From positions 1 through 64,000 of the IMG/VR virus record IMGVR_UViG_3300026512_000003: DNA of 64,000 nt, one strand, 5' to 3'. The notes under the pieces are model-generated. The model ran no database searches and was not told where the DNA came from. It saw only the letters and a list, made by a program, of their open reading frames with translations. Position 1 is the stretch's first letter; every line of letters begins with the position of its first letter. The position numbers and the translations under genes are program-made. The stretch is from a virus. Shown here piece by piece: positions 5,473 through 60,454 of this stretch.

Positions 5473-7254
5473 ATGGCATCAACTTTCAGTGGAAAGCTTT
5501 ACGATAGAAAATTCATGACAAGATATAATCAGCTAAGTAGTGTGTATGCTGATATCTTACCAAATGATATTCGTGAAGCAATTCAGTGGTCACAATTCAT
5601 TATTGCGAATGTGCCAAAAGCAGCTACTGCATTAGATAAGCTGTCATCGGTAGCAATTACATCTTTACAATACCAAACTTCAGACTTAACAGAGGCATCG
5701 GGAGTAGATGCTAAGTCTTGGAAGAATATTATGGAAGATAAATTAGAAATAGAAGAAAAAGTTAAAGAAATTGGGTTTAACTTTCTTCTCAATGGGAACT
5801 CATTTACATCAGTATATTTTCCTATACAAAGAAGTATGAGATGCTTAAAGTGTAAGCAGTCATCTTCTCAAATACATTTTGATGGAAAGATAACACTTAA
5901 GCCATCAATAGAACGACTTGAAACAGAGAAGAATAAAAAAAAGAAAGAAATGCTTGTGTTTAAAGGTATTTGCCCACATTGTAAAACAAGTAGCATGTTT
6001 AAAGCAGAAGACATTGTTATAAAAGATGTTAGCCGAATCAACATAGTGTCTTGGCCCGTATTTAATATGAGTTTTATTGAAGATACAGTAACAGGAAGAG
6101 CTACTTATTACTACAAGATGCCAAAATCAGAGGAAAAGCTGATAAAAGATGGCTATAACGATATGATATTTCACCAACCATTAGATATTATTGAAGCTGC
6201 TGTTCGTGGGACATCTGTTAAGTTTGATAATAACAAGATACTACACACAAGACGAAAGAAGATGAATGGGACAAACTCTAAATGGGGTATGCCTCTTCTT
6301 TTATCTGCTATCCCTGAAATGATTTCACTTTTACTTCTTAGAAAAGGGAATGAGCGTATATTGTCGGATATGATATTTCCTCTTAGGGGTGTTACTCCTC
6401 GTTCTACTGGTGCTGACGGTCAAGCAATGTATAATTTTATTAGTGGAACAGAGTTTTCTGCGAAAATTGAGAAGTTACTTCTTAGTCATAAAACAAATCC
6501 AACAAGTATTAAATACTTCCCTATACCGATAGACCCAGTAACGGCATTTGGAGAAGGAAAGAGCCTTAATTTATCAGGTGAGATAGATGAGCTAACCACA
6601 ATGATTATGACATCTATAGGGGTCCCTATAGAATTTGTTACAGGTGGACTTGGATACAGTGCTGCGGGAGCTTCAATTAGAATACTTGAAAACCAATTAA
6701 CAGACTTGTCTGGGACAATGGAAAATATAGCTAATTTTGTTGCACAGCAGGTAGCATCGTATATAGGAAAAGAACCTGTTCGCATCAAGTTTGTTCCAAT
6801 TAAACTTGTTGATGATATGACAGAAAAACAATTGCTTCTTAGTCTTTATCAAAATCAAAAAATCTCTGATCATACGATTGCGTCAATGTTTAAATTGGAT
6901 GCTAAGACAGAGAGCGATAGACTTGTTGAAGAGAGTAAAACTAGTGCTCGTGGACAAATGGAAATTCAATCTTATCAACAAGAGCTTAATCAAGACCTCG
7001 AAGAGAAAGCAAAACAAGAAGCAATGCTTTCTCAAAGCTCTACAGAACAAGTTAATCAACAAGCGATTATGCAAGAAGCTGATCAAATGGCTCAACAACT
7101 TGCTCAAATGGAAGCTGGACAAAGACGCTCTGAAATGGATAGATTGCAAAAAGATAATTGGCTATTGTATGTTGCTACTAAAGAGCGTATGGAATTTAAT
7201 GGTCGCAAGGATGCAACAGCAGCAGCACAGCAAGCACAACAGGAACAGCAATAA
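5473..7254 (+). CDS. Portal protein with Zn-ribbon insertion and Gln-rich C-terminus
   Basis: 593 aa; portal-like landmarks (IGFNFLLNGNSF, KILHTR...WGMPLL, IMTSIGVPIEFV, ISDHTI); CLKC...CPHC insertion. Confidence 0.75.
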   Translation: MASTFSGKLYDRKFMTRYNQLSSVYADILPNDIREAIQWSQFIIANVPKAATALDKLSSVAITSLQYQTSDLTEASGVDAKSWKNIMEDKLEIEEKVKEIGFNFLLNGNSFTSVYFPIQRSMRCLKCKQSSSQIHFDGKITLKPSIERLETEKNKKKKEMLVFKGICPHCKTSSMFKAEDIVIKDVSRINIVSWPVFNMSFIEDTVTGRATYYYKMPKSEEKLIKDGYNDMIFHQPLDIIEAAVRGTSVKFDNNKILHTRRKKMNGTNSKWGMPLLLSAIPEMISLLLLRKGNERILSDMIFPLRGVTPRSTGADGQAMYNFISGTEFSAKIEKLLLSHKTNPTSIKYFPIPIDPVTAFGEGKSLNLSGEIDELTTMIMTSIGVPIEFVTGGLGYSAAGASIRILENQLTDLSGTMENIANFVAQQVASYIGKEPVRIKFVPIKLVDDMTEKQLLLSLYQNQKISDHTIASMFKLDAKTESDRLVEESKTSARGQMEIQSYQQELNQDLEEKAKQEAMLSQSSTEQVNQQAIMQEADQMAQQLAQMEAGQRRSEMDRLQKDNWLLYVATKERMEFNGRKDATAAAQQAQQEQQ

Positions 7255-13156: not shown

Positions 13157-13161
13157 TTTTA

Positions 13162-14558: not shown

Positions 14559-14570
14559 TGTGATGATAAT

Positions 14571-14630: not shown

Positions 14631-14635
14631 ATGTT

Positions 14636-15604: not shown

Positions 15605-15645
15605 TTATTGTCAAACAAAACATATTTGTTCGTCTTAAAGACAGT

Positions 15646-15704: not shown

Positions 15705-15710
15705 AAAAAA

Positions 15711-16571: not shown

Positions 16572-16572
16572 C

Positions 16573-16637
16573 CTTAAAAAGCCCTCCTAAGAGGGTTTAA
16601 TTGAGCTTGTGAAACTCAGAAAAAACAAAAAAAAGGA
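16573..16637 (+). repeat. Intergenic double-hairpin element, copy 3
   Basis: CTTAA-AAAGCCCTC-ctaa-GAGGGTTT-aa-TTGAG-cttgtgaaa-CTCA-A run-AAGGA. Confidence 0.65.
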
Positions 16638-16643
16638 TGCAAA

Positions 16644-18071
16644 ATGCAAATTAAGATTAATTGTCATGTAGAGATGTCAGATATTACTGAAGCAGAAGCG
16701 TTAACGAAAGCTACTGAAAAAGTGGAAAGTTATGATGCTCTAGTCGAAGAAATAGCTGGAGAAGAACTGGTTACCAAGCTATACTATATAGTACCTAAAC
16801 TTGGAAAAATATTGGTTGTTGTTTCAGAAGAAGATAGAGTTATATTGGGTGTAGATAGCACAGTTCTTGCAAATACTTTGATCTCTGAATATCCTCTAGA
16901 GAAGCTTCCTTCACAGGTTGTTGCTTATCGTGAGCTTATCATTAAAGTTGGAAACGAAATAGATATGGATTCAATTATGAATGCAGCTCAATTTATTGCA
17001 GACGATACTGCATCAAAAGTTATGCCAGCTAGAATGCCTGTTGTTAAAGTGATCAACTATAACAATACCGATGAGTCTGTTTTGGTTGTTCCTAGTGTTT
17101 TTGGAGGTAATGTTTTTTCTAGTGTATCTGGTATTGTAAACAGTGGTGATGCAGAGGCAGGAAATGAAGTTATTGCTAGTTCAGGTATTATTGCTATTAC
17201 TTGTCCTACTGATGGTAGTGTAGTTGCAGGAGATACTTATAACGGTTATTTAGTTGTAGATGGAGATACTTTAAAAACTATGATTAGCAATGGTGATGAT
17301 GTAACGAATGTTTGTACTTCTTTAATAACTGATATGCGTGAGATTGCAAAAAATGTAGAAGACTTCAATCAAGATATTTCTCGTTGGGATGTTAGCAATG
17401 TTACAGATATGTATGATATGTTTTTTGGTGCAAAAGCTTTCAATCAGGATATCTCAAGTTGGGATGTTGGTAATGCTACGAGTTTGAGTTTTATGTTTTC
17501 TAATGCATCAGCTTTCAACCAAGATATCTCAAATTGGGATGTTTCTAATGTTACAGATATGGCTGGTGTATTTTCTGGTGCATCAGCTTTCAATCAAGAT
17601 ATCTCAAGTTGGAATATTGGTAATGCTACGAGTTTGAGATATATGTTTCATAATGCAAAAGCTTTCGACCAGGATATTTCAAACTGGGATGTTTCTAATG
17701 TTACGCGTATAGAAGATATGTTTTCTGGTGCAAAAGCTTTCAATCAAGATATCTCAAGCTGGGATGTTGGTAATGCTACGCAAATGCAAAATATGTTTTC
17801 TGGTGCATCAGTTTTCAACCAGGATATCTCAAGTTGGGATGTTAGTAATGTTACAAATATGAATGAGATGTTTAATAATGCATCAGCTTTCAACCAAGAT
17901 ATTTCAAGCTGGAATGTTGGTAATGTTACGCGTATGGAAAAGATGTTTAATAATGCATCAGCTTTCGACCAGGATATTTCAAGCTGGGATGTCAGCAATG
18001 TTACAAGGTCAACTTACTTTGCGCTTAGTTCTCCTATAGATGGAACAAGCAAAGAACCAAACTTTTCATAA
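16644..18071 (+). CDS. Paralogue B: shared N-terminal domain plus DUF285/BspA-like (PARCEL) repeats
   Basis: Nine 25-aa repeats F[ND]QDISxW[DN][VI]xN[VA]T...MF, preceded by the cap NVCTSLITDM. Confidence 0.85.
   Translation: MQIKINCHVEMSDITEAEALTKATEKVESYDALVEEIAGEELVTKLYYIVPKLGKILVVVSEEDRVILGVDSTVLANTLISEYPLEKLPSQVVAYRELIIKVGNEIDMDSIMNAAQFIADDTASKVMPARMPVVKVINYNNTDESVLVVPSVFGGNVFSSVSGIVNSGDAEAGNEVIASSGIIAITCPTDGSVVAGDTYNGYLVVDGDTLKTMISNGDDVTNVCTSLITDMREIAKNVEDFNQDISRWDVSNVTDMYDMFFGAKAFNQDISSWDVGNATSLSFMFSNASAFNQDISNWDVSNVTDMAGVFSGASAFNQDISSWNIGNATSLRYMFHNAKAFDQDISNWDVSNVTRIEDMFSGAKAFNQDISSWDVGNATQMQNMFSGASVFNQDISSWDVSNVTNMNEMFNNASAFNQDISSWNVGNVTRMEKMFNNASAFDQDISSWDVSNVTRSTYFALSSPIDGTSKEPNFS
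17364..18038 (+). repeat. 75-bp coding tandem repeat (9 copies)
   Basis: Recurrent TTCAAYCARGATATYTCAAGYTGGGATGTT at 75-nt period. Confidence 0.9.
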
Positions 18072-18072
18072 T

Positions 18073-18115
18073 CTCAGAAAGCCCTCTTAGGAGGGTTTTG
18101 TTGAGTTTAAAACTC
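18073..18115 (+). repeat. Intergenic double-hairpin element, copy 4 (terminator-like)
   Basis: CTCA-GAAAGCCCTC-ttag-GAGGGTTTT-gt-TGAG-tttaaaa-CTC. Confidence 0.65.
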
Positions 18116-18339
18116 CAACATTCGCACAAAATCAACAATATAATAAAAATATATAAAGAAAAGAAACCACAATGTAAAAAATAAAAATATTACCCAATAA
18201 TATTTATTGTAATGACTGTTTTAAAAGAAGAAAATCATATGAATGCTAAAGTAAGAATAATTACAGGAAAGACTCTAAACTTATTTGCTATCTATAATGT
18301 ACAAGTTAGACAAGATTATTATTTTTCTAACCCTTTTTA

Positions 18340-18348
18340 TGTTACAAT
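18340..18348 (+). promoter_or_regulatory. Extended -10 promoter-like (TGTTACAAT)
   Basis: Phased upstream T-tracts; 27 nt before ATG 18376. Confidence 0.5.
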
Positions 18349-18375
18349 CACAAAACTCATTAAAGGAGCTAAGGT

Positions 18376-18960
18376 ATGGGGTTATATAAAAAAGAGGTTT
18401 TAATTAGACCAACTTCCACAGTTACGGTATCTGGTGCTTATGATTGGACTAGAAACTGGCTACAAGACTTTCAAGATAAAAGCGAAAACAAAGATAGTAA
18501 CGGAAATTATATTGACTATTATTTTGCAGACATCTTCGATTCAAGAACATCTAATATTTATAGGATATATTCTAATCCATGTGAGGATAAATATGACTTA
18601 ACAGAGCTACGCTTTACAATACTGGATACAAGTAGATTTGTTGACAGAAGTGAGATTTCTGATAATCCTGATATTACACAAGATACAGATAAACTTGCGA
18701 CGAGAGAAGCTATAGGTTCAATCGTTAGCAACGAAGTAGCTAATCTGTACGAGATTGTCAACGAAGTTGGGACTATTTCTAATAAGAAAATGGCACTTAC
18801 TAGAGAACCAGCTGGTGAAATTATTTCTGGAACATGTGAAATTCATTTAGGAGATGATGTGTACGATAGAGTGTCATGCATACATCAGGATGGAGAGCTT
18901 GTTATTAATGAAGACAGTTATGAGGGGAAAGAGTGCATAGTGTCATTCTTAGCAAAATAG
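18376..18960 (+). CDS. Hypothetical acidic protein (possibly structural)
   Basis: AAGGAG RBS; DKLATREAI motif resembles tail-fibre joints. Confidence 0.7.
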   Translation: MGLYKKEVLIRPTSTVTVSGAYDWTRNWLQDFQDKSENKDSNGNYIDYYFADIFDSRTSNIYRIYSNPCEDKYDLTELRFTILDTSRFVDRSEISDNPDITQDTDKLATREAIGSIVSNEVANLYEIVNEVGTISNKKMALTREPAGEIISGTCEIHLGDDVYDRVSCIHQDGELVINEDSYEGKECIVSFLAK

Positions 18961-18970
18961 AAGTTGATTT

Positions 18971-18979
18971 TGGTATAAT
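18971..18979 (+). promoter_or_regulatory. Extended -10 promoter (TGGTATAAT)
   Basis: 30 nt before ATG 19010; heads the unit that includes the RNAP gene. Confidence 0.7.
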
Positions 18980-19009
18980 ACAACATATATTTTTAGAAAA
19001 GGTAGAAAA

Positions 19010-19282
19010 ATGAATGCATTCCATAAAGAAGCAAATTTGTTTCTAAATTTAGGGAAAAGGTTTACAGGTCTTGGGAATTCAATAGCAAATAAGGGCTACA
19101 AAGAAACAGCTAAGCACGGTTTTGAAACAATGAAAAATGATTTTAAAACAATGAAAGGGGTTGATTTTGCAAAAGCACATGCTGGAAAACTAGGTCTTGG
19201 AGGTGCTGGAGTTGTAGGCACGGCAGCAATGCTGGGCTCTGGGGGTAATAATAAACAGATGACAAGACCACGCCAATACTAG
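19010..19282 (+). CDS. Small basic Cys-free protein with Gly-rich hydrophobic segment
   Basis: MNAFHKEA N-terminus; KLGLGGAGVVGTAAMLGSG. Confidence 0.7.
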   Translation: MNAFHKEANLFLNLGKRFTGLGNSIANKGYKETAKHGFETMKNDFKTMKGVDFAKAHAGKLGLGGAGVVGTAAMLGSGGNNKQMTRPRQY

Positions 19283-19291: not shown

Positions 19292-19732
19292 ATGATACCT
19301 TCAGATAAAGTTAGAGCATACATTAGAGATAGGGCAGAATTAAATGTTTTGCTTGACAATAAAGAACAATATGATGATGATGAAATAGGAATGTTTAATG
19401 AGGATGTTCTTGAAGAACTCCTTATTCAATTTCCAGCTTTAAAAGCACAGAAGAATCGCATACCTGATCAGGTTGTATTGTATGGAATTATTTCTAAGTT
19501 ATTTGAAATGGTGGCTCAACAAGAACATAGAAACCAAATGGTTGTTGGTGATGATAATGTAGGGCAAATAGATTATTCAAACAAAGCAGACAAATATTTA
19601 AACTTTGCTCAGATATATGAAAATAAAAAAAATTCTCTGGCTCAAACATTTACAGCGAGTTCTTTCTATAGAGACACATGGGGAGATGTAACAATGGGTT
19701 CTAGTGATTTTGAATTTTATGCAGGTGTGTAA
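19292..19732 (+). CDS. Putative head-tail adaptor (neck) protein
   Basis: Helical 146-aa protein; VRAYIRD...YDDDEI...IDYS, like SPP1 gp15-type adaptors. Confidence 0.5.
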   Translation: MIPSDKVRAYIRDRAELNVLLDNKEQYDDDEIGMFNEDVLEELLIQFPALKAQKNRIPDQVVLYGIISKLFEMVAQQEHRNQMVVGDDNVGQIDYSNKADKYLNFAQIYENKKNSLAQTFTASSFYRDTWGDVTMGSSDFEFYAGV

Positions 19733-20271
19733 TGTCTATTATTAGAGAATCCCTTCAAGTTAATCCAATTAATGCTCAAGTTGTAAGTATAACAGGGAAG
19801 ATAAAAGTATATAATTTTGGTTGGATGTCAAATAGAGTTGTTGTTGCTACTGAAGAATCCGAAACAGACTTAGAAGGGATATTGACTGAGACTAGTCATA
19901 CTTTTATCCAAGGTAAAGTAGGACAAATTCATGAACAGAGTTCGGTAAAAGCATTGGATCCAACATTGCTTCAAGTTCCAGATGATGGTGGGGTAAAAGT
20001 GGGTGGAGATGACGAAACATCAAAAGTGTCAGTTCAAAGTTTCTTTAAAAAAGGACATAAATTTGGCTGTAGAGTTCAGAATTTTATGGGTAGAAAACCA
20101 AGCATTAGACCTACTTTTGTTAGACCTTATACAATAAATGAAGGAAAAGAGTATTATGATGCACAAGGTTCGGCTACTTTTGATCCGAAGTATACAAATT
20201 TTTCATTGCCTGCAGGGTTTGAGCAAACATCTGCTGTAGGTATAAAAACAACAACCATAATAGAGGGATAG
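19732..20271 (+). CDS. Hypothetical virion protein
   Basis: TAATG coupling to the adaptor gene. Confidence 0.65.
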   Translation: MSIIRESLQVNPINAQVVSITGKIKVYNFGWMSNRVVVATEESETDLEGILTETSHTFIQGKVGQIHEQSSVKALDPTLLQVPDDGGVKVGGDDETSKVSVQSFFKKGHKFGCRVQNFMGRKPSIRPTFVRPYTINEGKEYYDAQGSATFDPKYTNFSLPAGFEQTSAVGIKTTTIIEG

Positions 20272-20277: not shown

Positions 20278-23200
20278 ATGACTAAGTTAGACAGAACTCC
20301 TGATAAAATGAATGAAGCATTAAAAGACACAGTACTTAATACTTATGAAGGTAGAGAAGTAAAGGGAAAACATAAGACTCTTGTCTATAGTAATGTTCAC
20401 GCTACACCTACAGATAATGGTTATTCTTCAACAAAAAAAGCAGTAGACACAAAAGCCACTCTTTCTCAAAAATTTAAAGCTGATCTAACATTAAAAAGTT
20501 CTCTAGATGGACGAGTTCTCGAACATAAAAAAGGTGTGTTTATTGGTGATATTCCTATTTATTCTAAGAAAGGTGGTTTTGTAGTAGATGGGAACACCTA
20601 TAATATTCCTACCCAAATACGATTAAAACCATCAGCGTATACATCAGAAAAAGCCAATGGTGATGTAGAAACAATGATGAATTTAAAGAACGGGAAGGGA
20701 ATGAAACTTATTTCCCCTCAAGATAAAAATAAAATTGAATTAAAAATAGGGACTAAACAGTTTAATCCACTTGATGTTGCATATGCAATGGGAGCTAATG
20801 AAAAAGAAGCAAAGAAAGTTTTAGGTGACAAAGTTTTTGGTTTGTTACAATCAACATCTTCTCCTCATGAGTCAACTTTAAAATTAGCAACAGCATTAGG
20901 TATTTCTGAGCCAAACAACAATACTCCAATAAGCGAAGTAAAGGCTCAAATTAAAGATTACTTTCAAAAAACACAAATAGATCCACAAGCAACAAAAGAA
21001 ACTCTTGGTATGCCATTTTCTTCAATGAATCATTTAGCAATGCTTCGTTCTATTAAGAAAAATATAGGTGTGAAAACGGGGTATGAAAAACAGGACGATA
21101 AAGAAAATCTAATGTTTAAGAATATTATATCTCCAGAAAAATTAATTGGTGAGGGAGTTAATAAAAGACTAGCTCAGAGTGAAGCCAAAATGAAAAGTGG
21201 ACTCAATAATGCTTTTGCAAAAAATACAATAGGTGAAATAGTTACTGAACCTACTTTGAAAAAAGCAGCAAAGAGTTTTCTTACCACTAGTGCCATTTCA
21301 AGAATGCCTGAGGAATACAATCCTCTTCAAATGCTTCAAGGTAGTAATGATGTCACACCTTTGGGTGAAGGTGGAATTAGCGATACAAGAATGATTAATC
21401 AGAATGTAAGATCTTTACATATGTCTCAGTTGGGTTTTATAGATCCAATAAAGTCTCCAGAAGGTGCAAATACTGGAGTTACTTTAAGTCTAACACATGG
21501 TGCTCATGTTGATAGTCATGGAAATGCTGCAATTGAAGTTATAAATAACAAAACAGGAAAAAAAGAGATAAAAACTGTAGGAGATCTTTGGAATAAAAAA
21601 ATAGCTTTTCCTGATGTAAAAAAAGATGGATCAGTAGGAATGAGACATAAAGATAAAATTATTGTTGGCAACATAAGAAATGCTGACTATACTCTTGCTC
21701 ACTCCGAAAAGACATTTGGACCTGCTATGAATTCTTTAGGGGTTATAAGTTCAAACGATCCAACGAGAAATCTTATGGCATCGAAACACTCAACTCAAGC
21801 GTTGCCTTTAGTAAATGGGGATTATACTTCTGTGTCATTAGAGGGCGAAAACGGAAAAAGTATGTCTGAAAATCTTGCAAAAAGGCATTTACCACTTGCT
21901 GATATAAACGGTAAAATAACAAATGTAGATTCTAAGAATGGGTTTATTCATATTTCAAACGAAAATGGTGAACATAGCAAGATAGAGTATGCTAAAGATA
22001 AGATTCAATTAAACACGAAAACATACCTTCAACACACTCCTGTTGTAAAAGTTGGTGATACTGTAAAAAAAGGACAACATCTTGCAGATTCTAACTTTAC
22101 AAAAGATGGAAAGCTTGCTCTTGGTAAAAATTTAAGAACATCATGGATGGTGTATCCTGGAACAAGAAATGATGCTTTTATTTTATCAGAAAGTGGGGCA
22201 AAAAAACTTACTTCAGTACATTCTAAAAAATTTGATATTTCGACAAAAGAAGGCACTATTTATGATAAGAAAAAATTTGCAGCTCTTTTTCCAGAAGTAG
22301 CTCAAAAGATAGATATTCATAAATATGATGACAAAGGTTTGTTAAAAAAAGGAATGACTGTGTCTAAGGATGAACCAATATCCTTAGGCTTTAGAAAGAT
22401 GGATAGTGAGGAAGTAAAATTTGCCAATGATAAAGTAAAAAAGCTTATGTATGGCGGAATGGCCCCTGTTATCCAGAGATGGAAGGGTGACGATGTTGGA
22501 ACAATAAAAGAGATTGTTACAAAAGGGGCAAATACTAGAGTTGTATCGGAATATACTTCACCTATGAAGGTTGGTGACAAGCTAGCGGGAAGAAGTGGGA
22601 ATAAGGGTATTGTTTCGGCTATTCTTCCAGAAAAAGATATGCCTCGCGATGAAGAGGGAAATCATATAGAACTTCTCATGGGTGGAGCAGGAGTTACTTC
22701 GAGACAGAATCCGGCACAAATAATAGAGGCTTCGCTTACGGAAACAGCATTGAAAACAGGGAAAAACTATGTGTTACCTCATAACCCTGATGTGGATATG
22801 GATGTTTTTGCTAAACAGGAGGCAAAGAAAAATAATGTAAAATTGTATCATAAAATGTATGATCCACTTAGAAAAAAACATCTAGGGAAAGATGTATTTG
22901 TTGCAAATTACAATGTAATGAAATTATTTAAACAAGGTGATGCAACATATTCTGCAATTGGTCATGGTGGAGTTGGGGCAGATAATCAACCAAAAAAAGG
23001 TGGAAAAGAATCTCCTTCTACAATCTCAAACATGGAAATATCAGCACTGTTAGCACATGATGCAAAAGATTTCTTGAAAGAATCTTATAGTATTAGATCT
23101 CAGCACAATAAAGACTGGTTTAGAGCTTTTGAAGCGGGAGAGTCATTACCAGCTCCTGAATTAAAAACAGGAAAAGAGAATTTTCATAAAATGCTGTCTC

Positions 23201-24513
23201 AACTAAGAGTAAAGACTGTTAGTGATAAAAATCATATGCATTTATTGCCTATGACAGATAGAGATGTAACAAAAGTAAGTACAGGTGCTGTAACTGAGCC
23301 TTATGGGCTTAAGAGGAATACTATGACACCTGTGAAGGGTGGTTTTTATGATACTAAACTATTTGGTGGTACAGGAACGGGTGTTGCTCATATAGACCTT
23401 GGGACAAAAGTGGTCAACCCTTTGTATAAAGGTACTGTTGCTTCTCTATTAGGCACATCTGAAAAAAATTTAGATGCTAGAATTTCTAACGAGGGAGTAA
23501 ATGGAATTTATTCAGAAGTTGGAAACATAAAACCAAAAAACAAGATTAAAGAACTAAAATCAGAAATTTCAAGAACAAAAGATAATGGAAAAATAAATAG
23601 ATTGTTTAGCACTATCAAAGCAATAAGAAAAACAGATGAAAATACAAAAGATATAAGAGATGCTATGTTTATGTCCAAGGTTCCTGTACTTTCTACAGCA
23701 CTTAGACCTGTGCAGAAATTACCTTCAGGAAGCATTGTAGAACATGATATAAATATGCATTATGCAAATATAATTAGAAGTAGTAATATTCTAAAGGAGG
23801 CTAAGAAAGAAAAAGCACCAATTCATATTCAGAATCACCTTCAAGATGAGCTTCAAAAACATGTTGGTGCAATGTATGGAACAAATGAAAGCCCTGACCC
23901 AAAAATGAAAGATAAAGATGTAAAAAGTGTTATGAATATTTTAGCAGGTGATAACCCAAAAACTTCATACTGGCATCAAAAAGTAATGAGACAACAAGTG
24001 TTTGGTTCTGGTAGAGCAGTAATCCTTCCAAAAATAAAATCACTAGGAATGGATGAAATAGAGATTCCAAAATATGTAGCTTGGAAAATGTTTGAACCTC
24101 ATGTGACAAGAAAAATGTCTCAAATGGGTATTGACTCTAATACATCAAAAGATATGATAGAGAAAAAGAGTGATACAGCTAACGCTGTGTTACATCAAGT
24201 GATGAAAGAGGTTCCTGTTGTGATAAATAGAGCTCCTTCTCTTCACAAGCATAATATGACAGGACACTATGCGAAAATAAGTGCAGGTAATGCTATGCAT
24301 ATATCTCCTATTATCGAAAATGCTCAAAATGCAGACTACGATGGGGATCAAATGGGTATTCATATTCCTTTTACCCATGCAGCAATAAAAGATGTAAAAG
24401 ATAAGCTTATGGCATCAAAACAAATAATGACGAATTCAAATAAAAATAAAGTTATAATGGGGATAGATTTGGACCCGTTTATAGGATTTTATGAAGGTAG
24501 TAGAAAGAAGTAG
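20278..24513 (+). CDS. Phage DNA-directed RNA polymerase, beta subunit fused to the N-terminal half of beta'
   Basis: beta motifs LGEGG, GFIDPIKSPEGANTG, NDPTRNLMASKHSTQALPL, GKLALGKNL, VGDKLAGRSGNKG, SRQNPAQ, QPKKGG..MEISAL; beta' motifs GFYDTKLFG, AHIDL, VPVL...RP, SGRAVI, INRAPSLH, NADYDGDQM (24328-24348). Confidence 0.95.
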   Translation: MTKLDRTPDKMNEALKDTVLNTYEGREVKGKHKTLVYSNVHATPTDNGYSSTKKAVDTKATLSQKFKADLTLKSSLDGRVLEHKKGVFIGDIPIYSKKGGFVVDGNTYNIPTQIRLKPSAYTSEKANGDVETMMNLKNGKGMKLISPQDKNKIELKIGTKQFNPLDVAYAMGANEKEAKKVLGDKVFGLLQSTSSPHESTLKLATALGISEPNNNTPISEVKAQIKDYFQKTQIDPQATKETLGMPFSSMNHLAMLRSIKKNIGVKTGYEKQDDKENLMFKNIISPEKLIGEGVNKRLAQSEAKMKSGLNNAFAKNTIGEIVTEPTLKKAAKSFLTTSAISRMPEEYNPLQMLQGSNDVTPLGEGGISDTRMINQNVRSLHMSQLGFIDPIKSPEGANTGVTLSLTHGAHVDSHGNAAIEVINNKTGKKEIKTVGDLWNKKIAFPDVKKDGSVGMRHKDKIIVGNIRNADYTLAHSEKTFGPAMNSLGVISSNDPTRNLMASKHSTQALPLVNGDYTSVSLEGENGKSMSENLAKRHLPLADINGKITNVDSKNGFIHISNENGEHSKIEYAKDKIQLNTKTYLQHTPVVKVGDTVKKGQHLADSNFTKDGKLALGKNLRTSWMVYPGTRNDAFILSESGAKKLTSVHSKKFDISTKEGTIYDKKKFAALFPEVAQKIDIHKYDDKGLLKKGMTVSKDEPISLGFRKMDSEEVKFANDKVKKLMYGGMAPVIQRWKGDDVGTIKEIVTKGANTRVVSEYTSPMKVGDKLAGRSGNKGIVSAILPEKDMPRDEEGNHIELLMGGAGVTSRQNPAQIIEASLTETALKTGKNYVLPHNPDVDMDVFAKQEAKKNNVKLYHKMYDPLRKKHLGKDVFVANYNVMKLFKQGDATYSAIGHGGVGADNQPKKGGKESPSTISNMEISALLAHDAKDFLKESYSIRSQHNKDWFRAFEAGESLPAPELKTGKENFHKMLSQLRVKTVSDKNHMHLLPMTDRDVTKVSTGAVTEPYGLKRNTMTPVKGGFYDTKLFGGTGTGVAHIDLGTKVVNPLYKGTVASLLGTSEKNLDARISNEGVNGIYSEVGNIKPKNKIKELKSEISRTKDNGKINRLFSTIKAIRKTDENTKDIRDAMFMSKVPVLSTALRPVQKLPSGSIVEHDINMHYANIIRSSNILKEAKKEKAPIHIQNHLQDELQKHVGAMYGTNESPDPKMKDKDVKSVMNILAGDNPKTSYWHQKVMRQQVFGSGRAVILPKIKSLGMDEIEIPKYVAWKMFEPHVTRKMSQMGIDSNTSKDMIEKKSDTANAVLHQVMKEVPVVINRAPSLHKHNMTGHYAKISAGNAMHISPIIENAQNADYDGDQMGIHIPFTHAAIKDVKDKLMASKQIMTNSNKNKVIMGIDLDPFIGFYEGSRKK

Positions 24514-24591: not shown

Positions 24592-26343
24592 TTGAAAGTA
24601 ATCGTAGGTGAGTTAGATTTTAGTAAACTAGGGGAAACATTTGAAATAGAAAATCAAGGATGTGGGGATTACAATTGCAAATTTGAGTTATGGACAGCTA
24701 ATGAGATAGAAGTTTTAGAAAAGATTCCATTGGAGATAAAGGAAGGTGGATTCCAGGTTCCTATAAGTACATGGAAAGAAGCTTCAATAAACCCTACAGA
24801 AATAGTGATTTTTTTCCGTAAAGAATGGAGATTAGAGGCATGTAAAAGAGTTATTCTTGACAGTAACCCTGTGCAATCTGTAGGCAAGTTAGTAGTAATT
24901 AGGCCAGATGCTAATAAAGTAGAGGAATTGTTTACACAACACAAGACTACACTTGATGTTATTGTAAATAAACCATTTAGGTTGCCTCTCAGGATTAAAG
25001 ACTTTAATGAATGTTCAGAAGAAGAATGTGCTCTTGAAATAAATATAGGATGGGTTACTTATAAAGGGCAAAGTCTAAATCCATTTTTAGCAGGCTGTTC
25101 ATATTCTCTCTCTCTTGATGGTGGTCAACATTGGCAAGAAAGTCTTGACCTTCTTTTTTATGAAACAGGTAGTAAGGAAATTAAATTTATGATAGAAACA
25201 GGTGATCTTGGAATAAATGACGAAGCAGAAGTATCTTTTCAAATAAATGTAATAGAAGACCCCGAAGCAACAGAAACAGAAGATCTTGTAGATGTCGTTA
25301 CTCAAATGCCAAAAGCTTACTTTGTGGTTCAAGATAGAGGGGTGAGAAATGGAAATTTAACTTTAAATGTTTTTCACACTAGCAAATACCAAATTTCTAC
25401 AATTGAAATATCTTTAGATGATGAAGTTATATATCCTTCTCAAGAATTTAACTCTCCTTTAATAGAGATTGGAGTGGGAAGTTCAGATTTAACCGAAAGA
25501 ACACTTAAATTAAGTACCACAGGAGTTAGTGAAGGGGAGACAATTTCTGATACATACACGCAAGTAATTAAAAACTATACAACATTAGATGGGACAATTT
25601 CAACATCTCAAGATTCAGACACAGGAAAATATACAGCGTTACTTGAAGCAAGTATGCCAGATAAACTGACTAGTATTTTGTGGCAAATTGTGTATAGCTC
25701 TACAATAGTAGAAAAAGTAGTGAAATTAGAAGATAAGGATGAAAAAGCTCTTCTCCATGTTCTTTATCAAGAGTATTCAGAGCCGACAGAGACATCTATC
25801 GAATTTGATATATATAATCCAGGAAAGTATATGATAGAAGCCTATATGATTGATGAGACAGGTGAAATGTTTAAAGTATCAAGAGAATTATTTATTCCAG
25901 GTGAACGAGATGATGATGAAGAAATTAAAGTTGGCGATGATATTACAGTAGGATGCACAAGTGTACACGGTGAAGTTCCTATAATGAAAGTGTTTAGATT
26001 ATCACAAGATGGATATGAATTATTAGATAATTTTGCTATGGAAAAAGCTTTTGATAAAACTTATGTGGCTAACTTTACCGTAGAATACGAAAATAGTTTC
26101 TATATATTTCAAGCAGAAAGTAGTATTGTTGTTAAAAAAGTAGGTGAGCCTTCAGGATGTATTATTTCTTTTTCTAGAGATAAGACATCAGGAAGATCTA
26201 TCCCTTACAGATTAGAAAATTTTTCAGGTGATTTAATAGAAGAAGGAACATTAGACGATTCTACATTTGGAATATACTATAAAGTTATGGAAAACGCATC
26301 TGATGGCATTCTTACAGTGGGAAATACCAGAAAGGTAGTGTAG
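24592..26343 (+). CDS. Acidic multi-Ig/PKD-like virion protein
   Basis: Beta-rich; FYETGSKEIKF and IYNPGKYMIEAY resemble PKD/Ig strands. Confidence 0.6.
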   Translation: MKVIVGELDFSKLGETFEIENQGCGDYNCKFELWTANEIEVLEKIPLEIKEGGFQVPISTWKEASINPTEIVIFFRKEWRLEACKRVILDSNPVQSVGKLVVIRPDANKVEELFTQHKTTLDVIVNKPFRLPLRIKDFNECSEEECALEINIGWVTYKGQSLNPFLAGCSYSLSLDGGQHWQESLDLLFYETGSKEIKFMIETGDLGINDEAEVSFQINVIEDPEATETEDLVDVVTQMPKAYFVVQDRGVRNGNLTLNVFHTSKYQISTIEISLDDEVIYPSQEFNSPLIEIGVGSSDLTERTLKLSTTGVSEGETISDTYTQVIKNYTTLDGTISTSQDSDTGKYTALLEASMPDKLTSILWQIVYSSTIVEKVVKLEDKDEKALLHVLYQEYSEPTETSIEFDIYNPGKYMIEAYMIDETGEMFKVSRELFIPGERDDDEEIKVGDDITVGCTSVHGEVPIMKVFRLSQDGYELLDNFAMEKAFDKTYVANFTVEYENSFYIFQAESSIVVKKVGEPSGCIISFSRDKTSGRSIPYRLENFSGDLIEEGTLDDSTFGIYYKVMENASDGILTVGNTRKVV

Positions 26344-26933: not shown

Positions 26934-27920
26934 ATGACAGTAGAAGAAGAGTTAATAGCGCTTAAGGGTAAGGTTGCTGCATTAATCAGTATTTTAACGG
27001 GGAAGCAAGAAAGTAGAGTTGATGGAGAGAAACTCCAAAGATTTATTGAAAATTATGCAATTCTTGAAGCAATGACAGGTGATAAAACCATTTCAGCTTT
27101 TGTGGAACAAATAGGGATTATTCAAGATAGATTTTCTCAGGTGTCAGGTAGAGTAGAGGGGTTGCTTGGGGCGACGGAAGTAGAAACGGCGAAGTTATTA
27201 GAAACACTTGGTGGAGACAAAAACGATATCGCTCTAAATGTGGCGAACTCTGTGCAATTCCAATTAACGGTTACCGACTCATATAAAAGTTTACTTACGC
27301 ATCTTAACAAACTAGATATTACTGGAAAAATACAACGAATGGAAGTTACTTTAAGCGAAGGTTTGGGGCTTATTAGAAGTATGAAAGGACAAGAACAGGA
27401 AATTGCAATTTTACTACAGAAGATAGCTATGAATAAAGAGCTGATTGATGGAATGGATGTTGTTAATACACAACAAACAACATTAATAGAACATACGGAA
27501 GATATGCTTGTGGAACTTGAAAGACAAATGGAAAACTATGCTTTCTATGCTGAAGAGTTTGATAAAGTGTATTCAACAGCAACAAAATTCATTGCACAAT
27601 TTTCGAGTATGAGTCTAGAGATGGAAAGAATAACAAAAAGAGATTCTAATTTAGAACATATACTATCTACAACATTGAAAACTGTTTTTGATGATTATAT
27701 TAAGATTCAAAATATCATAAATTCTTTCAATGAAGGATTGTCAAATTTTGGTTTAGAGACAGCAGAAAAGCTTAATGGAATTAATATCTATGTAAACGAA
27801 TACAAAGCAATATCAAATGCTATTGGAACCGTTTCTGAAAGATGTGATACCGCTAAAGCAAATATTGATAATTTAACTACTGAGCTTAATGATTTAGACT
27901 GCGAATATGTGAGAGCATAA
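26934..27920 (+). CDS. Long coiled-coil hypothetical protein
   Basis: Heptad-rich; I found no Pro in 328 aa. Confidence 0.75.
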   Translation: MTVEEELIALKGKVAALISILTGKQESRVDGEKLQRFIENYAILEAMTGDKTISAFVEQIGIIQDRFSQVSGRVEGLLGATEVETAKLLETLGGDKNDIALNVANSVQFQLTVTDSYKSLLTHLNKLDITGKIQRMEVTLSEGLGLIRSMKGQEQEIAILLQKIAMNKELIDGMDVVNTQQTTLIEHTEDMLVELERQMENYAFYAEEFDKVYSTATKFIAQFSSMSLEMERITKRDSNLEHILSTTLKTVFDDYIKIQNIINSFNEGLSNFGLETAEKLNGINIYVNEYKAISNAIGTVSERCDTAKANIDNLTTELNDLDCEYVRA

Positions 27921-29029
27921 TGAGACAGTTTACTTATACTTATAGCTCTGAGATGTTTTGTAGTCATGGGTTGTGTACTTTTGTACCTCAGGCAAAGTTT
28001 TTTCATCCAACAATGGGTTTTACTGAGTTTCATGGGCCAGGTTTGTTTCAGGACTTAGATCACCTAGGATATTCAAAAAAATTTACGGACTTTTTTAAAG
28101 GTGCAATCTCTTTTAGACATTCAGTAAAAATATTTTTTCCAGAAATAAAAAAAGGGCTAATCTTTTTAGATAAATTAAAATATCGTGCTGTTTCAAAAAA
28201 TGAAAATCCAATTCTTAACTATGAGATAGTAAAAGATGATAAATATGAGGATTATATCGAGATAAAAGACCATCTTGTAGAATTCGAGGTTATAGTGAGT
28301 GCTGATTTTGGTAAAAAAATTTCTCCAGAAGAATTAGTAGAAATTGTTTGTGAGAGAATGGAGTTTTTGTTGTTCAATCAACGAATTTCAATTGCACTAC
28401 ATAAAGGAAACATGACGATAGTTCCATATGTAATTTCATATGATACAGTATATCCAATAGAATTTGCTAAGCAAACAACAAAAAGTTCCAATCTCGTTGC
28501 TAATTCTGGCTTGAATTTTGGATTTGTACTATTAGAGAATGAGAAGAACTACTTTGAAAAAAAAGGTTTTTCTTGTGATGAGGTAGATTCTTCGCTGTTG
28601 GATACAGCTTTTATTAAATCTCAAATTGATACTAAGCTATCTAAAGGTGAGGTTGATTTACACAATGTTACTACATGTTCTGAAAACTATTATTTATTAA
28701 CATTACCGAAAACACTTTTTACAAAAACAGATAAGAAGAATTTTATACCTATCTTTAATCCAGAAATAGCTATGAATTGTTGTGATTACATTAAGGCTAA
28801 GCTATGCAGTCCTTATGCTAAACAGTACAAAATACCATCTATTTCAGAATGTCCTAAAAGTTGTCCAAAATCGGATGCTGAAACAGCTTGTAAACAAGTA
28901 TATAAGTATGAAGTAATTAACAAAGCGATAATTGGTTATGTCACCTTTTCTCTCTTGGACTGGAAAAAGTTGGATGAGTTTGCAAAAATAATAAAACCTA
29001 AAGAACAAGACTATATAGAGGAGGTGTGA
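27920..29029 (+). CDS. Hypothetical protein (Cys-rich C-terminus)
   Basis: TAATG coupling; 369 aa. Confidence 0.75.
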   Translation: MRQFTYTYSSEMFCSHGLCTFVPQAKFFHPTMGFTEFHGPGLFQDLDHLGYSKKFTDFFKGAISFRHSVKIFFPEIKKGLIFLDKLKYRAVSKNENPILNYEIVKDDKYEDYIEIKDHLVEFEVIVSADFGKKISPEELVEIVCERMEFLLFNQRISIALHKGNMTIVPYVISYDTVYPIEFAKQTTKSSNLVANSGLNFGFVLLENEKNYFEKKGFSCDEVDSSLLDTAFIKSQIDTKLSKGEVDLHNVTTCSENYYLLTLPKTLFTKTDKKNFIPIFNPEIAMNCCDYIKAKLCSPYAKQYKIPSISECPKSCPKSDAETACKQVYKYEVINKAIIGYVTFSLLDWKKLDEFAKIIKPKEQDYIEEV

Positions 29030-54386: not shown

Positions 54387-55997
54387 ATGAAAACAAACCC
54401 TAGAGTTTCAAAATTTATGTTAGACTACGCTTTTATTGACGGAAGAAAGCTTGATTTTGAAAAATATGAAGCATTTAAGCTTCCTTACGAGGTTGATGAG
54501 AGGCAGGTTTTGCTTACAGCAGGAAGACAGGTTGGTAAGACAGTTTATCTAGCTGGAAAACTTGCTGTGAAATCTGTTTTAAAAAAAGGTTCGAGAGCGT
54601 TATATGTTGCACCATTGGAGTCTCAGACAAAGACCTTCTCAAAAACAAAACTTCAGAAAATAATAGATGATACAAAACAGTTAAAAGCAGCATATACTGG
54701 AAAAGGTACACAAAATGATGTGTTCTTTAAGCAAAACATTTTAGGAAGCTATATCGAGCTTACTTATGCTTCTGTCACAGGGATGGACCCTGTCAGGGTT
54801 AGGGGTAAGTCTGCAGATGATTTATTTATAGATGAAGCACAAGATATTGATTATGACATTTTGCCAGCAATACAAGAAGTTACAACATCTGCGGAAGACC
54901 CAACTGTGACATATGCCGGTACAGCAAAAAGCCTTGATAATACAACAGGAGTAATCTGGGATTTGTCTACAAAATTGGAAAGAATGGTTTATTGTAAACA
55001 TTGTGGACATTGGAATATTTTAGACAGAAGAAACATATCAAAAGAAGGTCTTGTCTGCAATAGAATGAAATGTCGAAGACCTATTTCTGTTAGGGATGCA
55101 AAATGGATGATTACGGGTGATAAGCACGCTACATATCAAGCTTTCAGAATACCTCAAATTTGTCTTCCAATGCATACTGAATCGAAAAGTCATTGGAATT
55201 CTGTATGGAACAAATATGTAGATTATCCTCCAGAGATTTTTAATCAAGAAATACTGGGAATTCCAAGTGGAGCAGGAGATAGACTCTTAAATCTTGAAAA
55301 ACTAAAAGCTCTTTGCACAGGTGGAAGAATGACAGTGTATCCAGATGAAGGTTTTTTCCAAAAATATCATGGTCTTTTCATGGGGATAGACTGGACAGGT
55401 GACGGAGTTCTTCTTAAATCAAGAACTGTTGCTACTGTGATTGGCCATAGAAAAGATGGAAAGCTTGAATTGGTATGGGGGAAAATCTTTCCACCAGGAA
55501 GCGTTAATGAGCAGCCTAAAGAGCTTATTAAAATTGCTAACCTTTTTAGATGCTCTGTTGTAGGAGCCGATGCTGGTATGGGTATGATGCAAAATGGGGA
55601 AATAACTCAAGCATTAGGAATAAGTAGGTTTAGAGCTATACAATATATTGCGGGGAATACTCCTTTTACTTTTGACTTTGAAAACAATACTATTAAATTG
55701 AACAAAACCCAAGCAATTGATACAGTTATGATGTTGTTCTTAAAAAAGTTTAAACCTAAAAATTTTGGGGGATCTGCAAGAAATTACTCTGGTCATGGGG
55801 TATTAGAGATTGTATTTCCAGAATATGATGATATGAGACTTTTTATACAAGATATCTTAGCTGAATTTGAACAGGAAACTGCAAAACACACTAAAATATG
55901 GACTCATAGCAACATGAAGCCCGACGATACTCTTCATGCAATAGTTTTTGGTTTTTATGCATATATGCATCATCGTAATACTGTGAGCTTTTACTAG
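54387..55997 (+). CDS. terL: Terminase large subunit
   Basis: Walker A GRQVGKT, Walker B LFIDEAQD, motif III AGTA, Zn ribbon CKHC..CNRMKC, RNase H-like MGIDW...PDDTLHA. Confidence 0.92.
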   Translation: MKTNPRVSKFMLDYAFIDGRKLDFEKYEAFKLPYEVDERQVLLTAGRQVGKTVYLAGKLAVKSVLKKGSRALYVAPLESQTKTFSKTKLQKIIDDTKQLKAAYTGKGTQNDVFFKQNILGSYIELTYASVTGMDPVRVRGKSADDLFIDEAQDIDYDILPAIQEVTTSAEDPTVTYAGTAKSLDNTTGVIWDLSTKLERMVYCKHCGHWNILDRRNISKEGLVCNRMKCRRPISVRDAKWMITGDKHATYQAFRIPQICLPMHTESKSHWNSVWNKYVDYPPEIFNQEILGIPSGAGDRLLNLEKLKALCTGGRMTVYPDEGFFQKYHGLFMGIDWTGDGVLLKSRTVATVIGHRKDGKLELVWGKIFPPGSVNEQPKELIKIANLFRCSVVGADAGMGMMQNGEITQALGISRFRAIQYIAGNTPFTFDFENNTIKLNKTQAIDTVMMLFLKKFKPKNFGGSARNYSGHGVLEIVFPEYDDMRLFIQDILAEFEQETAKHTKIWTHSNMKPDDTLHAIVFGFYAYMHHRNTVSFY

Positions 55998-56848: not shown

Positions 56849-57826
56849 ATGCAACCAGCAGTATCAACAACAGTTAGTTCAAACCAATTTGTTTCAAGAT
56901 TATTCGATGACGAAGGTTTTGTAAAAGAAGCAGCAGATGCTCTATCACTTTTTATCCAAGATAAAATTCGTGAAAAAGGATTTGCTCGTAAAATAGTTAA
57001 ACCTACTCCTGTTTCAGCAAAAGATTTAGTGCCTACAGAGCATACTGATCAACCTGCAATCATGGTAGAAAGAGATGTGGATGCTCGTGCAATGACAGTT
57101 CCTCTTCGTGGTCGTGGTGAATTCAGATATCATGAAACAGACAGATATATGGTTTATTTTGAAAAAGTTGTTTCTGAAAAAATTAGAAAATCAAAAATGG
57201 AAATGATGACAGTTAAAACTGATTATAAAAAACTTTTCCAAGATAGAATTTCTGAAGCAATGTACGAAGTAGAAGACTTAACAGTTATGGGTGGTGTAAA
57301 AAGTGCTCTTGCTAATGAGGAAGCTGCATATAAAGAAGCAAATGGTGGTGATTTAGCTTCTCAAGGAAATAAAACTTTCTCAGCTCAGACAGTTTACTTT
57401 GGAGAAGGTGAAACATTAGACAAATCGAATCTAGTATTCCTATTCCAACTTCCAACAAGAAATAGAATTAGTAATAAAACAGTTCTATTAACAGAAACAC
57501 TTCTACAAGAGTTAATGCATATGACTATGCAAGAAGTCGGTGATAGTGTTGTTTCTAAATTCTGGCAAGATGGTGTTGATAATATTTCAGAGTTCTGGAA
57601 TAAACAAGTAGTAACAACAATTAAATCACACATCATTAAAAATAATGAAATCTACACATTTGCTTCTCCAGAGATGTATGGACATTTCTTTATCTTACAA
57701 GACCACACTTCGTATTTCGAAATTGATCGAGACATGATGACTATGGATAGTGAAGCATATATTGCTCATGCAATTGGAAACACTAAAGGTGTTTACAAAG
57801 GTGTGTTTACAGATATCGCTGAATAG
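56849..57826 (+). CDS. Major capsid protein (HK97 fold, predicted)
   Basis: 325 aa; strong AAGGAG RBS and biased codons; IREKGFARKI, long helix ending YEVED, C-terminal HAIGNTKGV; followed by a terminator. Confidence 0.75.
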   Translation: MQPAVSTTVSSNQFVSRLFDDEGFVKEAADALSLFIQDKIREKGFARKIVKPTPVSAKDLVPTEHTDQPAIMVERDVDARAMTVPLRGRGEFRYHETDRYMVYFEKVVSEKIRKSKMEMMTVKTDYKKLFQDRISEAMYEVEDLTVMGGVKSALANEEAAYKEANGGDLASQGNKTFSAQTVYFGEGETLDKSNLVFLFQLPTRNRISNKTVLLTETLLQELMHMTMQEVGDSVVSKFWQDGVDNISEFWNKQVVTTIKSHIIKNNEIYTFASPEMYGHFFILQDHTSYFEIDRDMMTMDSEAYIAHAIGNTKGVYKGVFTDIAE

Positions 57827-59547: not shown

Positions 59548-59859
59548 ATGGCAACTGTACCATCAAATGAACCAGCATTAAATACAGAAGGTTTTTCATC
59601 TGTATCTGGAGCAATCACATTACAAAAACAAATTCAAGCAGTTAGAAAAGCAGATCCTATTTTTGCGATAGGCGATGAGAACCTAAAGGGTTATGTTGCT
59701 TTAAAAATGTATGATCAAACAACAGCATCTGTTATTAACTCGGAAGATCTTGACCCAACAGACTTCGACTTATTTAGAGGAGAAAGTTACGCAAGTGGCC
59801 AACCATATGTAACAAACGAGGCAACTTGGGCTAGTGGTGGAGACCTTGCAGACTTATAA
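59548..59859 (+). CDS. Hypothetical protein
   Basis: AAGGA RBS. Confidence 0.65.
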   Translation: MATVPSNEPALNTEGFSSVSGAITLQKQIQAVRKADPIFAIGDENLKGYVALKMYDQTTASVINSEDLDPTDFDLFRGESYASGQPYVTNEATWASGGDLADL

Positions 59860-60454
59860 TAGCGATGGCACTATAGAACACTTTAAGAAAAAATTCTCTT
59901 CTTCTTTACCACCCTCTGAGCTTGAATATCTTTTGTTCAAGGGGTTTAATAATGCAAAAGCTACTTTTGACGCTTCAAAAGGGGCAGGATTTGCAACCCA
60001 TTTATCTAATCATTTACAAAGACTTTACAGGGACGCAGAGTCAACAAAAAGCTCATTAAAGACAAGCGAGGGTTCTTTATTAAAAGACAATAAAGTTCTC
60101 CGTGCGAAAGATGAACTATATATGCGTTTTGGGACTGAGCCTTCAAATGAAGAAATCGCTAAACATTTAAAAATGCCTCTGAAGGACATTTCAAAGTCAC
60201 TACGAAATTCAGGAAGACAAAATGTTAAAGTTAAAGAGTATAAAAGCAAGCAAATACAAATAGATGTACCTACTCTTTTACCTTCAATTAAAAAAGATGA
60301 GCAAAAAATAGCAGATACAATTGCTAAAGGCATGAACCTGCAGCAAAGTCTTAAGCATACAGGTATGTCTAAGAGTGAGTTTTATCGACAGCAAGGCACA
60401 TTTAAAGATAAGCTTAGGCAATCATACTTACGAACAGCCGAAAGGGAGAGTTAA
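59834..60454 (+). CDS. Sigma70-family RNA polymerase sigma factor (regions 2-4; start uncertain)
   Basis: Region 2 FDASKGAGFATHL (cf. FDPxRGxKFSTYA); region 3 ELYMRFGTEPSNEEIAKHLKM; region 4-like HTH GMNLQQSLKHTGMSKSEFYR. Confidence 0.75.
   Translation: MVETLQTYNSDGTIEHFKKKFSSSLPPSELEYLLFKGFNNAKATFDASKGAGFATHLSNHLQRLYRDAESTKSSLKTSEGSLLKDNKVLRAKDELYMRFGTEPSNEEIAKHLKMPLKDISKSLRNSGRQNVKVKEYKSKQIQIDVPTLLPSIKKDEQKIADTIAKGMNLQQSLKHTGMSKSEFYRQQGTFKDKLRQSYLRTAERES

Follow-up and report, generated by a model that had tools for sequence, protein, structure and literature searches.

Does a bacterial-type RNA polymerase (RNAP) that is encoded by a phage and contains not a single cysteine act as an ordinary intracellular enzyme, or does it travel inside the virion and enter the host together with the DNA? 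This question is raised by the open reading frame (ORF) at positions 20278-24513 of IMG/VR virus record IMGVR_UViG_3300026512_000003, in the following called the RNAP ORF. The record, which stems from a hydrothermal-vent metagenome assembly, is a linear sequence of 165,427 bp with a guanine-plus-cytosine (GC) content of 31-35% and an estimated completeness of 88%; its first 64 kb (64,000 nucleotides) constitute the window studied here, and genes outside the window are given by their position in the genome. An earlier note on this stretch had interpreted the RNAP as an injected virion enzyme. Our analysis leads to a similar reading: the RNAP of this phage is likely a virion enzyme, as judged from one imperfect proteome, that of phage Arash, and from comparative signatures. 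Specifically, we favor, with moderate confidence, a two-polypeptide RNAP that would be made late, packed into the capsid and delivered with the DNA, and that would have lost its free cysteines and the zinc-binding domain (ZBD) of β' through selection acting on a protein that is carried in the particle or ejected.

Pfam searches with the translated RNAP ORF gave matches to Rpb2 domain 6 (PF00562, E 1e-30) and Rpb2 domain 3 (PF04565, E 1e-10) and, downstream of these, to the C-terminal part of Rpb1 domain 1 and to Rpb1 domain 2. Residues 84-979 could be aligned with residues 96-1051 of a solved β chain of 1072 residues, and in the main alignment with Thermus β, residues 84-834 correspond to Thermus residues 110-904. 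From the Pfam matches and the alignments with β and β' it follows that the RNAP ORF is a β::β'-N fusion that stops soon after the catalytic barrel, its end lying about 55 residues past the intact catalytic loop. All Pfam and PDB matches were to β or β', and a T7-like single-subunit polymerase fold was not seen among them; with the gene as query, a megablast search matched no phage record. PF00562, PF00623 and PF04998 each match once in the 165-kb record, which means that it carries a single RNAP set, and no paralogous non-virion set was found with these three Pfam models in the record at its completeness of 88%. The coordinates of all features are collected in the table further below.

As the earlier note had counted, there is no cysteine in the 1411 residues of the RNAP ORF, and our recount gave 5-18 cysteines for neighboring large ORFs (for example 8 in 24592-26343, 11 in 27920-29029 and 18 in 32384-36109). 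With background cysteine contents of 0.90% over the 53 ORFs of the window and 1.08% over 184 ORFs of the genome, about 13-15 cysteines would be expected in the RNAP ORF, and the probability of finding none is between 2e-7 and 3e-6. In order to put this composition into context, a homologue search was performed over 5.8 billion proteins, which retrieved about 100 phage-type RNAP homologues with 24-63% identity, many of them encoded on contigs of 150-220 kb. The resulting family alignment comprises 100 sequences (99 homologues and the query) and 1362 core columns. Core cysteines are absent from 83 of the 99 homologues; 11 others carry a single one and 5 carry two or three, which amounts to 24 cysteines in 133,881 core residues (0.018%), as compared to 0.61% for cellular β controls from the same search. 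The homologues from two cultured phages, Arash gp206 (1 cysteine in 1525 residues) and that of Vibrio phage D69 (2 in 1527), conform to this. Counting cysteines across homologues was the check that the earlier note had proposed, and a normal cysteine content was not seen in the core columns of the family.

An origin of the zero-cysteine state by chance, or as a by-product of AT-rich codon usage, might be considered for a genome of such low GC content in which cysteine is rare in many small ORFs. However, a probability of about 2e-7 for the RNAP ORF alone, the normal cysteine content of the large ORFs beside it and the repetition of the pattern in 83 of 99 homologues, a family that includes phage Arash with 53% GC, leave practically nothing of this explanation, and we consider it refuted by the family data. 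Keeping cysteine at 0.018% down to 24% identity calls for selection that is both strong and specific.

Cysteines outside the core columns are located either in inserts that Pfam assigns to inteins or LAGLIDADG endonucleases and that have low occupancy in the alignment, or in the Zn-II cluster of full β-β' fusions, where they follow the pattern of one C-x(50-70)-C-x6-C-x2-C. Intein or LAGLIDADG/homing-endonuclease inserts are present in homologues P0039, P0049, P0057, P0067, P0070, P0076, P0093 and P0094, and since the cysteines of such proteins lie nearly all inside the inserts, the spliced RNAP would be almost free of cysteine again. Five homologues (P0073, P0075, P0081, P0088 and P0090) are full β-β' fusions of 2020-2097 residues with no cysteine at all, in which even the Zn-II cluster is gone. 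For P0073, P0075 and P0081, precomputed Pfam annotation lists matches to PF01551 (Peptidase_M23), which may merely reflect the sandwich-barrel hybrid motif common to β and β' and not a lytic domain.

The second peculiarity of the RNAP ORF concerns the ZBD of β'. The proposal that GTGTGV stands in place of the four-cysteine domain of cellular β' was borne out by alignments with solved bacterial β' chains and with P0100, a fused homologue of cellular type. Cellular β' reads IFGP-TKDYECYCGKY...CDKCGVEV...-GHIAL at this site and the RNAP ORF reads LFGG-TGTGV-AHIDL (the stretch TKLFG...AHIDL corresponding to nucleotides 23353-23400), so that a four-cysteine segment of about 35 residues ('PTKDYECYCGKY...CDKCGVEV...') between IFG and GHI.L is reduced to 5-6 residues. 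In all family members examined the ZBD is swapped for about five residues. The loss is that of an accessory domain and the catalytic core is spared. Deletion work on E. coli β' reportedly pointed to a role of the ZBD in modulating termination and antitermination and not in catalysis; with such a role, the domain would be dispensable.

The remainder of β' is encoded by a separate gene at 88304-90046 of the genome. The earlier note had expected this β'-C protein to be free of cysteine as well, which is not the case: four cysteines are kept (residues 213, 264, 271 and 274), all of them ligands of the second zinc site of β' (HDCG...ETCRAKHGVCALCFG). Among 47 phage β'-C homologues, cysteines occur solely at the zinc cluster in 46, as four residues or as six with two extra ones beside the cluster, and one homologue has none. 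The accurate wording is that no cysteine other than zinc ligands exists across the core enzyme of about 1990 residues. For comparison, in the solved structures listed cellular β alone has about 1070-1340 residues and cellular β' about 1160-1500. The phage enzyme shares with bacterial RNAP a nearly full β, the clamp helices, the NADxDGD loop, the Zn-II cluster and a partner of the sigma-70 family (here a predicted one); unlike bacterial RNAP, including the fused β-β' protein P0100, it has no ZBD and no free cysteines, and its β' chain is split behind the catalytic domain.

The closest characterized homologue of the RNAP ORF is Arash gp206, which is 25.5% identical to it in an alignment that covers 96% of the query. 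Arash and the phage studied here share the β::β'-N fusion with a separate β'-C, an RNAP gene located just 3' of the portal gene, and a sigma-like homologue. The β'-C of Arash (gp216) has just the four cysteines of the cluster, the same pattern as in our case, and Vibrio phage D69 shows the same cysteine pattern as Arash. In the Arash virion proteome, gp206 was the top protein by spectra with 128 unique peptides and 3516 spectra; its spectra outnumber those of the capsid protein, whereas per residue the capsid protein of 307 residues ranks higher (PMC10585845). Furthermore, gp216 was detected with 40 peptides and the sigma-like gp10 with 100% coverage (PMC10585845). By homology to these Arash proteins, we infer that the RNAP of the present phage is packaged. 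The cysteine and ZBD features of the RNAP are not mentioned in the Arash paper (PMC10585845).

Another abundant component of Arash virions is gp217 (L001 23046-24464), a SNF2-family helicase of 472 residues that is encoded beside β'-C, is free of cysteine and was represented by 38 peptides and 1148 spectra, which would fit a transcription module that is packaged as a whole in Arash. In the record of the phage studied here, a Helicase_C domain gave no match, and phmmer searches of this genome with Arash gp196, gp217, gp4, gp8 and gp229 were likewise without match. Arash gp196 is a second sigma factor, which contains cysteine and is absent from the virion list, and no counterpart was found in this genome.

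Alternatively, the RNAP might be an ordinary intracellular enzyme, with a cysteine and ZBD state that merely records lineage history and an Arash signal that is due to carry-over of an abundant late protein. Many clearly non-structural enzymes are indeed present in the Arash proteome, RNAP, DNA polymerase and similar proteins have also been obtained from YerA41 particles, and a single RNAP set is what would be expected of an enzyme of the replicative cycle. On the other hand, gp206 tops the Arash spectra, whereas the likely contaminants primase, ligase and ribonucleotide reductase alpha were detected with 2, 2 and 11 unique peptides (PMC10585845). In addition, a cysteine content of 0.018% is held down to 24% identity, the RNAP gene is embedded among neck-like and structural genes, and the virion RNAP of phiKZ shows the same loss of the ZBD, a domain kept by non-virion or early RNAPs, so that we judge an exclusively intracellular enzyme to be improbable.

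The comparison with phiKZ bears directly on the favored reading of a packaged enzyme. The phiKZ virion RNAP (gp178, gp149, gp180 and gp80) is a multisubunit β/β' enzyme that is packaged and injected. It is far more diverged from cellular RNAP than the RNAP ORF and is barely detected by Pfam; the phiKZ genes, too divergent for most Pfam searches, were taken from annotation. At the site where the RNAP ORF lacks the ZBD, the virion β'-N of phiKZ (gp180) reads IFG-RVGSTDRESLF-GYIHL and has lost it too, whereas the non-virion β'-N (gp55) keeps CxC...CxxC. The virion β'-C of phiKZ keeps the cysteine cluster, as is the case here. In the sole lineage with both classes of enzyme, ZBD loss thus follows the virion class, which places the RNAP family described here on the virion side; a β'-N without ZBD as a feature of virion enzymes is proposed in this analysis and is not an established criterion. 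With regard to cysteine, the phiKZ virion RNAP has 16 in 2614 residues (0.61%) and the non-virion enzyme has 1.16%, indicating that the content is lowered and not eliminated. Of the signature put forward in the earlier note for injected enzymes, the combination of missing cysteines and missing ZBD, the parallels with phiKZ gp180 and with the virion RNAPs of N4 and DEV stand, but the cysteines kept by the phiKZ virion enzyme show that zero cysteine is not a necessary part of it.

The phiKZ system differs in other respects as well. Its β and β' are distributed over at least 4-5 polypeptides, a second set of non-virion subunits exists beside them, and a sigma homologue is lacking (PMC7598289, PMC13282480), whereas two polypeptides and a Sigma70_r3-positive ORF are present here. 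Reviews describe phage multisubunit RNAPs as two paralogous sets of 4-5 polypeptides each without sigma homologues (PMC7598289, PMC7824862, PMC13282480), and the same reviews are silent on cysteine and on the ZBD. In YerA41, β, β'-N and β'-C are encoded by separate genes (gp137-139) and the sigma gene is located beside capsid genes; this RNAP is listed as early-expressed, and RNAP and sigma are reported to be associated with particles. It keeps the ZBD (CRC...CEKC) and has a normal cysteine content (16 in 1998 residues).

Complete suppression of cysteine in a giant RNAP that is packed in the capsid and ejected is known from N4 gp50 and Pseudomonas phage DEV gp71. The N4 enzyme had been cited as cysteine-free in the earlier note, and gp50 indeed contains none in 3500 residues. 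Cysteine suppression in ejected proteins of Schitoviridae has been published, with a rationale based on the periplasm and Dsb (PMC11445570). Unlike the RNAP ORF, the N4 and DEV enzymes have a single-subunit T7-like fold, belong to podoviruses with an ejectosome and have no zinc-cluster partner.

Passage of an unfolded protein through tail and periplasm, as the earlier note had it, is one possible cause of such suppression. It could also be that cysteines are avoided in a packaged RNAP for the sake of long survival of the folded enzyme in an oxidizing extracellular particle, where free thiols would oxidize or cross-link, and that ejection may occur without having selected the composition. Such an explanation fits the buried zinc cluster of β'-C, which is kept in 46 of 47 homologues while free cysteines and the exposed ZBD are gone, as well as the cysteine-free capsid protein of this phage and the abundant cysteine-poor virion proteins of Arash, irrespective of whether their ejection is likely (gp226, 0 in 307 residues; gp227, 0 in 283; gp4, 0 in 1097; gp229, 2 in 2548). 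However, proteins of tail or baseplate size encoded at 32384-52206 have a normal cysteine content of 0.7-1.5%, indicating that presence in the particle alone is insufficient for cysteine loss. Also, the other giant cysteine-free ORF of this genome (65924-70114) looks, by its sequence features, like a tape-measure or ejection protein, five full-length fusions have lost the zinc cluster too, and the precedent of N4 and DEV ties cysteine loss to ejected proteins. On balance, storage as the sole selective force is rather unlikely, though better placed than an exclusively intracellular enzyme.

A candidate for the specificity factor of the favored virion enzyme is the sigma-70-family-like protein encoded at 59834-60454, a few genes 3' of the capsid gene. 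It is the sole gene of the record that matches Sigma70_r3 (38.7 bits at a cut-off of 25.3 bits), it aligns with residues 129-218 of RpoS and it is homologous to gp10 (E 8e-7), which was detected in Arash virions. Sigma70_r2 of Pfam gave no match anywhere in the genome, this ORF included. When the protein was modeled in complex with RNAP residues 985-1411, a score of 0.78 was obtained, with the best control at 0.01; three runs share at least 50% of contacts, and the partner has a predicted local distance difference test (pLDDT) value of at least 69. In the calibration of this procedure, the mark was reached by 58 of 80 solved complexes and by 2 of 110 mismatched pairs. The modeled contact, in which residues 22-36 of the sigma-like protein lie on clamp helices 1151-1195, is the textbook sigma2/β' interface. 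As similar holoenzymes have already been solved, the pass of the complex model may reflect memory of them. Sigma factors are generally poor in cysteine, so the cysteine-free state of this protein and of its homologues is uninformative.

The favored reading can be formulated as follows. The core enzyme, composed of β::β'-N and β'-C, would be produced at the same late stage as the head and neck proteins and would be packed into the capsid, probably along with the sigma-like protein. It would be delivered with the DNA, and phage transcription would begin without host RNAP. Because the genome has a single RNAP set, newly made copies would probably take over later transcription. Selection on the particle-borne or ejected protein would have stripped cysteines that are not ligands and the exposed N-terminal zinc finger of β', and the buried cluster of β'-C would have stayed. 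The reason for cysteine avoidance could be envelope passage or long storage in an oxidizing particle.

Several points weigh against this reading. The Arash homologue is just 25% identical and the present phage is known from its genome alone. The Arash proteome comprises 116 proteins, among them ribonucleotide reductase, primase and ligase, and carry-over of abundant cytoplasmic proteins was raised by the Arash authors themselves (PMC10585845). The phiKZ virion RNAP is packaged with its 16 cysteines, which means that zero cysteine is no necessary mark of packaging, and the retained zinc cluster of β'-C speaks to some degree against the idea that selection came from full unfolding within an oxidizing compartment. 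An RNAP gene expressed only late would make the injected copy obligatory, which is a strong claim, and the record, with its estimated completeness of 88%, might lack a further RNAP set. Finally, exposure to a periplasm would be suggested by analogy.

More tentatively, and with less confidence than the reading for this phage, we propose that one widespread and hitherto undescribed clade of phages of about 150-220 kb, comprising Arash, D69 and the phages behind many metagenomic contigs, would use a single thiol-free, sigma-dependent holoenzyme of bacterial type that is packed, ejected and the sole phage RNAP throughout the cycle. This would be a poxvirus-like strategy, as opposed to the use of two enzymes by phiKZ and AR9.

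Features of the late gene block, the RNAP genes and the sigma-like gene. Positions refer to the record; the window covers positions 1 to 64,000.
Feature	Position	Strand	Basis or remark
Portal protein	5473..7254	+	late block; tblastn to Arash gp204 portal, E 3e-60
ORF of 194 residues, function unassigned	18376..18960	+	first gene past hairpin 18078-18099; kept in relatives
ORF of 146 residues, 0 Cys, probably head-to-tail adaptor (neck)	19292..19732	+	AlphaFold2 (AF2) model; structural search; synteny
ORF of 179 residues, function unassigned	19732..20271	+	directly 5' of RNAP gene, 6-nt gap
β::β'-N fusion, bacterial-type multisubunit RNAP, 1411 residues, 0 Cys	20278..24513	+	Pfam Rpb2_3, Rpb2_6, Rpb1_1, Rpb1_2
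β portion, residues 1 to ~980, compact, near full length	20278..23217	+	alignment to solved β chains
β'-N portion, residues ~985-1411	23230..24510	+	from residue ~993 on, aligns with bacterial β' ~16-76 and 170-530
Six-residue linker GTGTGV, residues 1031-1036, at β' ZBD site	23368..23385	+	alignments
β' clamp helices, residues 1151-1195, predicted docking site of sigma-like protein	23728..23862	+	bacterial β' coiled-coil alignment; complex model
Catalytic loop NADYDGD, residues 1351-1357, intact, three Asp	24328..24348	+	translation; DxDGD conserved in homologues examined
Large terminase	54387..55997	+	late block; tblastn to Arash gp1, E 3e-65
Major capsid protein, 325 residues, 0 Cys	56849..57826	+	tblastn to Arash gp226, E 4e-32
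Sigma-70-family-like protein, 206 residues, 0 Cys, candidate specificity factor	59834..60454	+	late block; Pfam Sigma70_r3
β'-C, 580 residues, outside the window	genome 88304-90046	-	PF04998 (Rpb1 domain 5), E 3e-11

The RNAP gene lies within a co-oriented gene block that spans nearly the whole window (559-61667) and holds the portal, terminase and capsid genes of the table. In the earlier note the gene had been placed in one unit with a neck protein and a cargo-like protein. The first of these assignments stands with moderate support. The AF2 model of ORF 19292-19732 (pLDDT 73.9) was compared with 48,161 chains in an exhaustive VIA structural search. Phage head-to-tail adaptor or neck proteins made up 11 of the 12 best matches, with Z-scores of 7.1-8.9; scores in this range are often reached by helical proteins, and a Foldseek search of PDB gave nothing at E <= 0.001 for the same model, so the assignment is only moderately supported. 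In relatives L022 and L023, homologues of this ORF are located at the same place 5' of the RNAP gene. The cargo-like protein was not confirmed, as neither Pfam nor PHROGs gave a match. ORF 19732-20271, also without a match in Pfam and PHROGs, has its sole homologue in L022, the closest relative locus, and a word-index search retrieved just the protein itself. The gene order in Arash is portal, small ORF and RNAP, and D69 as well as L024, a relative of 190 kb, have a portal-sized ORF, a small ORF and the RNAP gene in this order.

When at least 20 ORFs near the RNAP gene were searched against Pfam and PHROGs, only ORF 16644-18071 on the plus strand was matched. It encodes a DUF285 protein of 475 residues with three repeats (E 6e-98), which might be exposed on the virion surface or act like an adhesin, and is followed on its 3' side by a terminator-like hairpin at 18078-18099. 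Ig-like leads from the ESM Atlas for ORF 24592-26343 were below threshold (<=0.85) and were not used. A phage-specific promoter motif was not obtained from 9-mer enrichment in 56 intergenic regions, and a scan for sigma-70 promoters gave 36 sites where 36.7 were expected, again without a phage-specific motif.

Cysteine is also absent from many small and medium-sized ORFs of the head region, namely those at 3947, 4336, 8133, 9216, 9936, 11214, 13199, 19010 and 19292 and, further on, those at 56082 and 56405 and the capsid gene at 56849 (ranges 3947-19282 and 56082-57826); in contrast, the large ORFs at 32384-55997 contain 0.7-1.7% cysteine. Outside the window, the second giant cysteine-free ORF (genome 65924-70114, minus strand) encodes a helical protein of 1396 residues that is rich in Ser, Lys and Gly, has a glycine-zipper hydrophobic segment near its N-terminus and gave no Pfam match. 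Another ORF on the minus strand (genome 92021-93274) encodes 417 residues with 44% identity over 201 residues to the Arash virion protein gp222.

Packaged multisubunit RNAPs (phiKZ and AR9) and cysteine-free ejected proteins (N4 and DEV) are each known and have hitherto been unconnected. What is new here is a family of RNAPs that form a single set, are fused as β::β'-N, are associated with a sigma-70 relative and are nearly free of thiols, the near-absence of cysteine being kept down to 24% identity. Should the connection with packaging and ejection be true, the lack of the ZBD together with the lack of free cysteines would be a predictor, from sequence only, of phage enzymes that travel with the DNA. 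In that case, Arash and Salmonella would provide a culturable model for studying how a core of about 225 kDa gets through a channel about 35-45 Å wide and then refolds, and the family would offer a natural cysteine-free scaffold of bacterial-type RNAP for site-specific labeling. If the proposal for the whole clade is also true, loss of the ZBD and of free cysteines would predict which multisubunit RNAPs are ejected.

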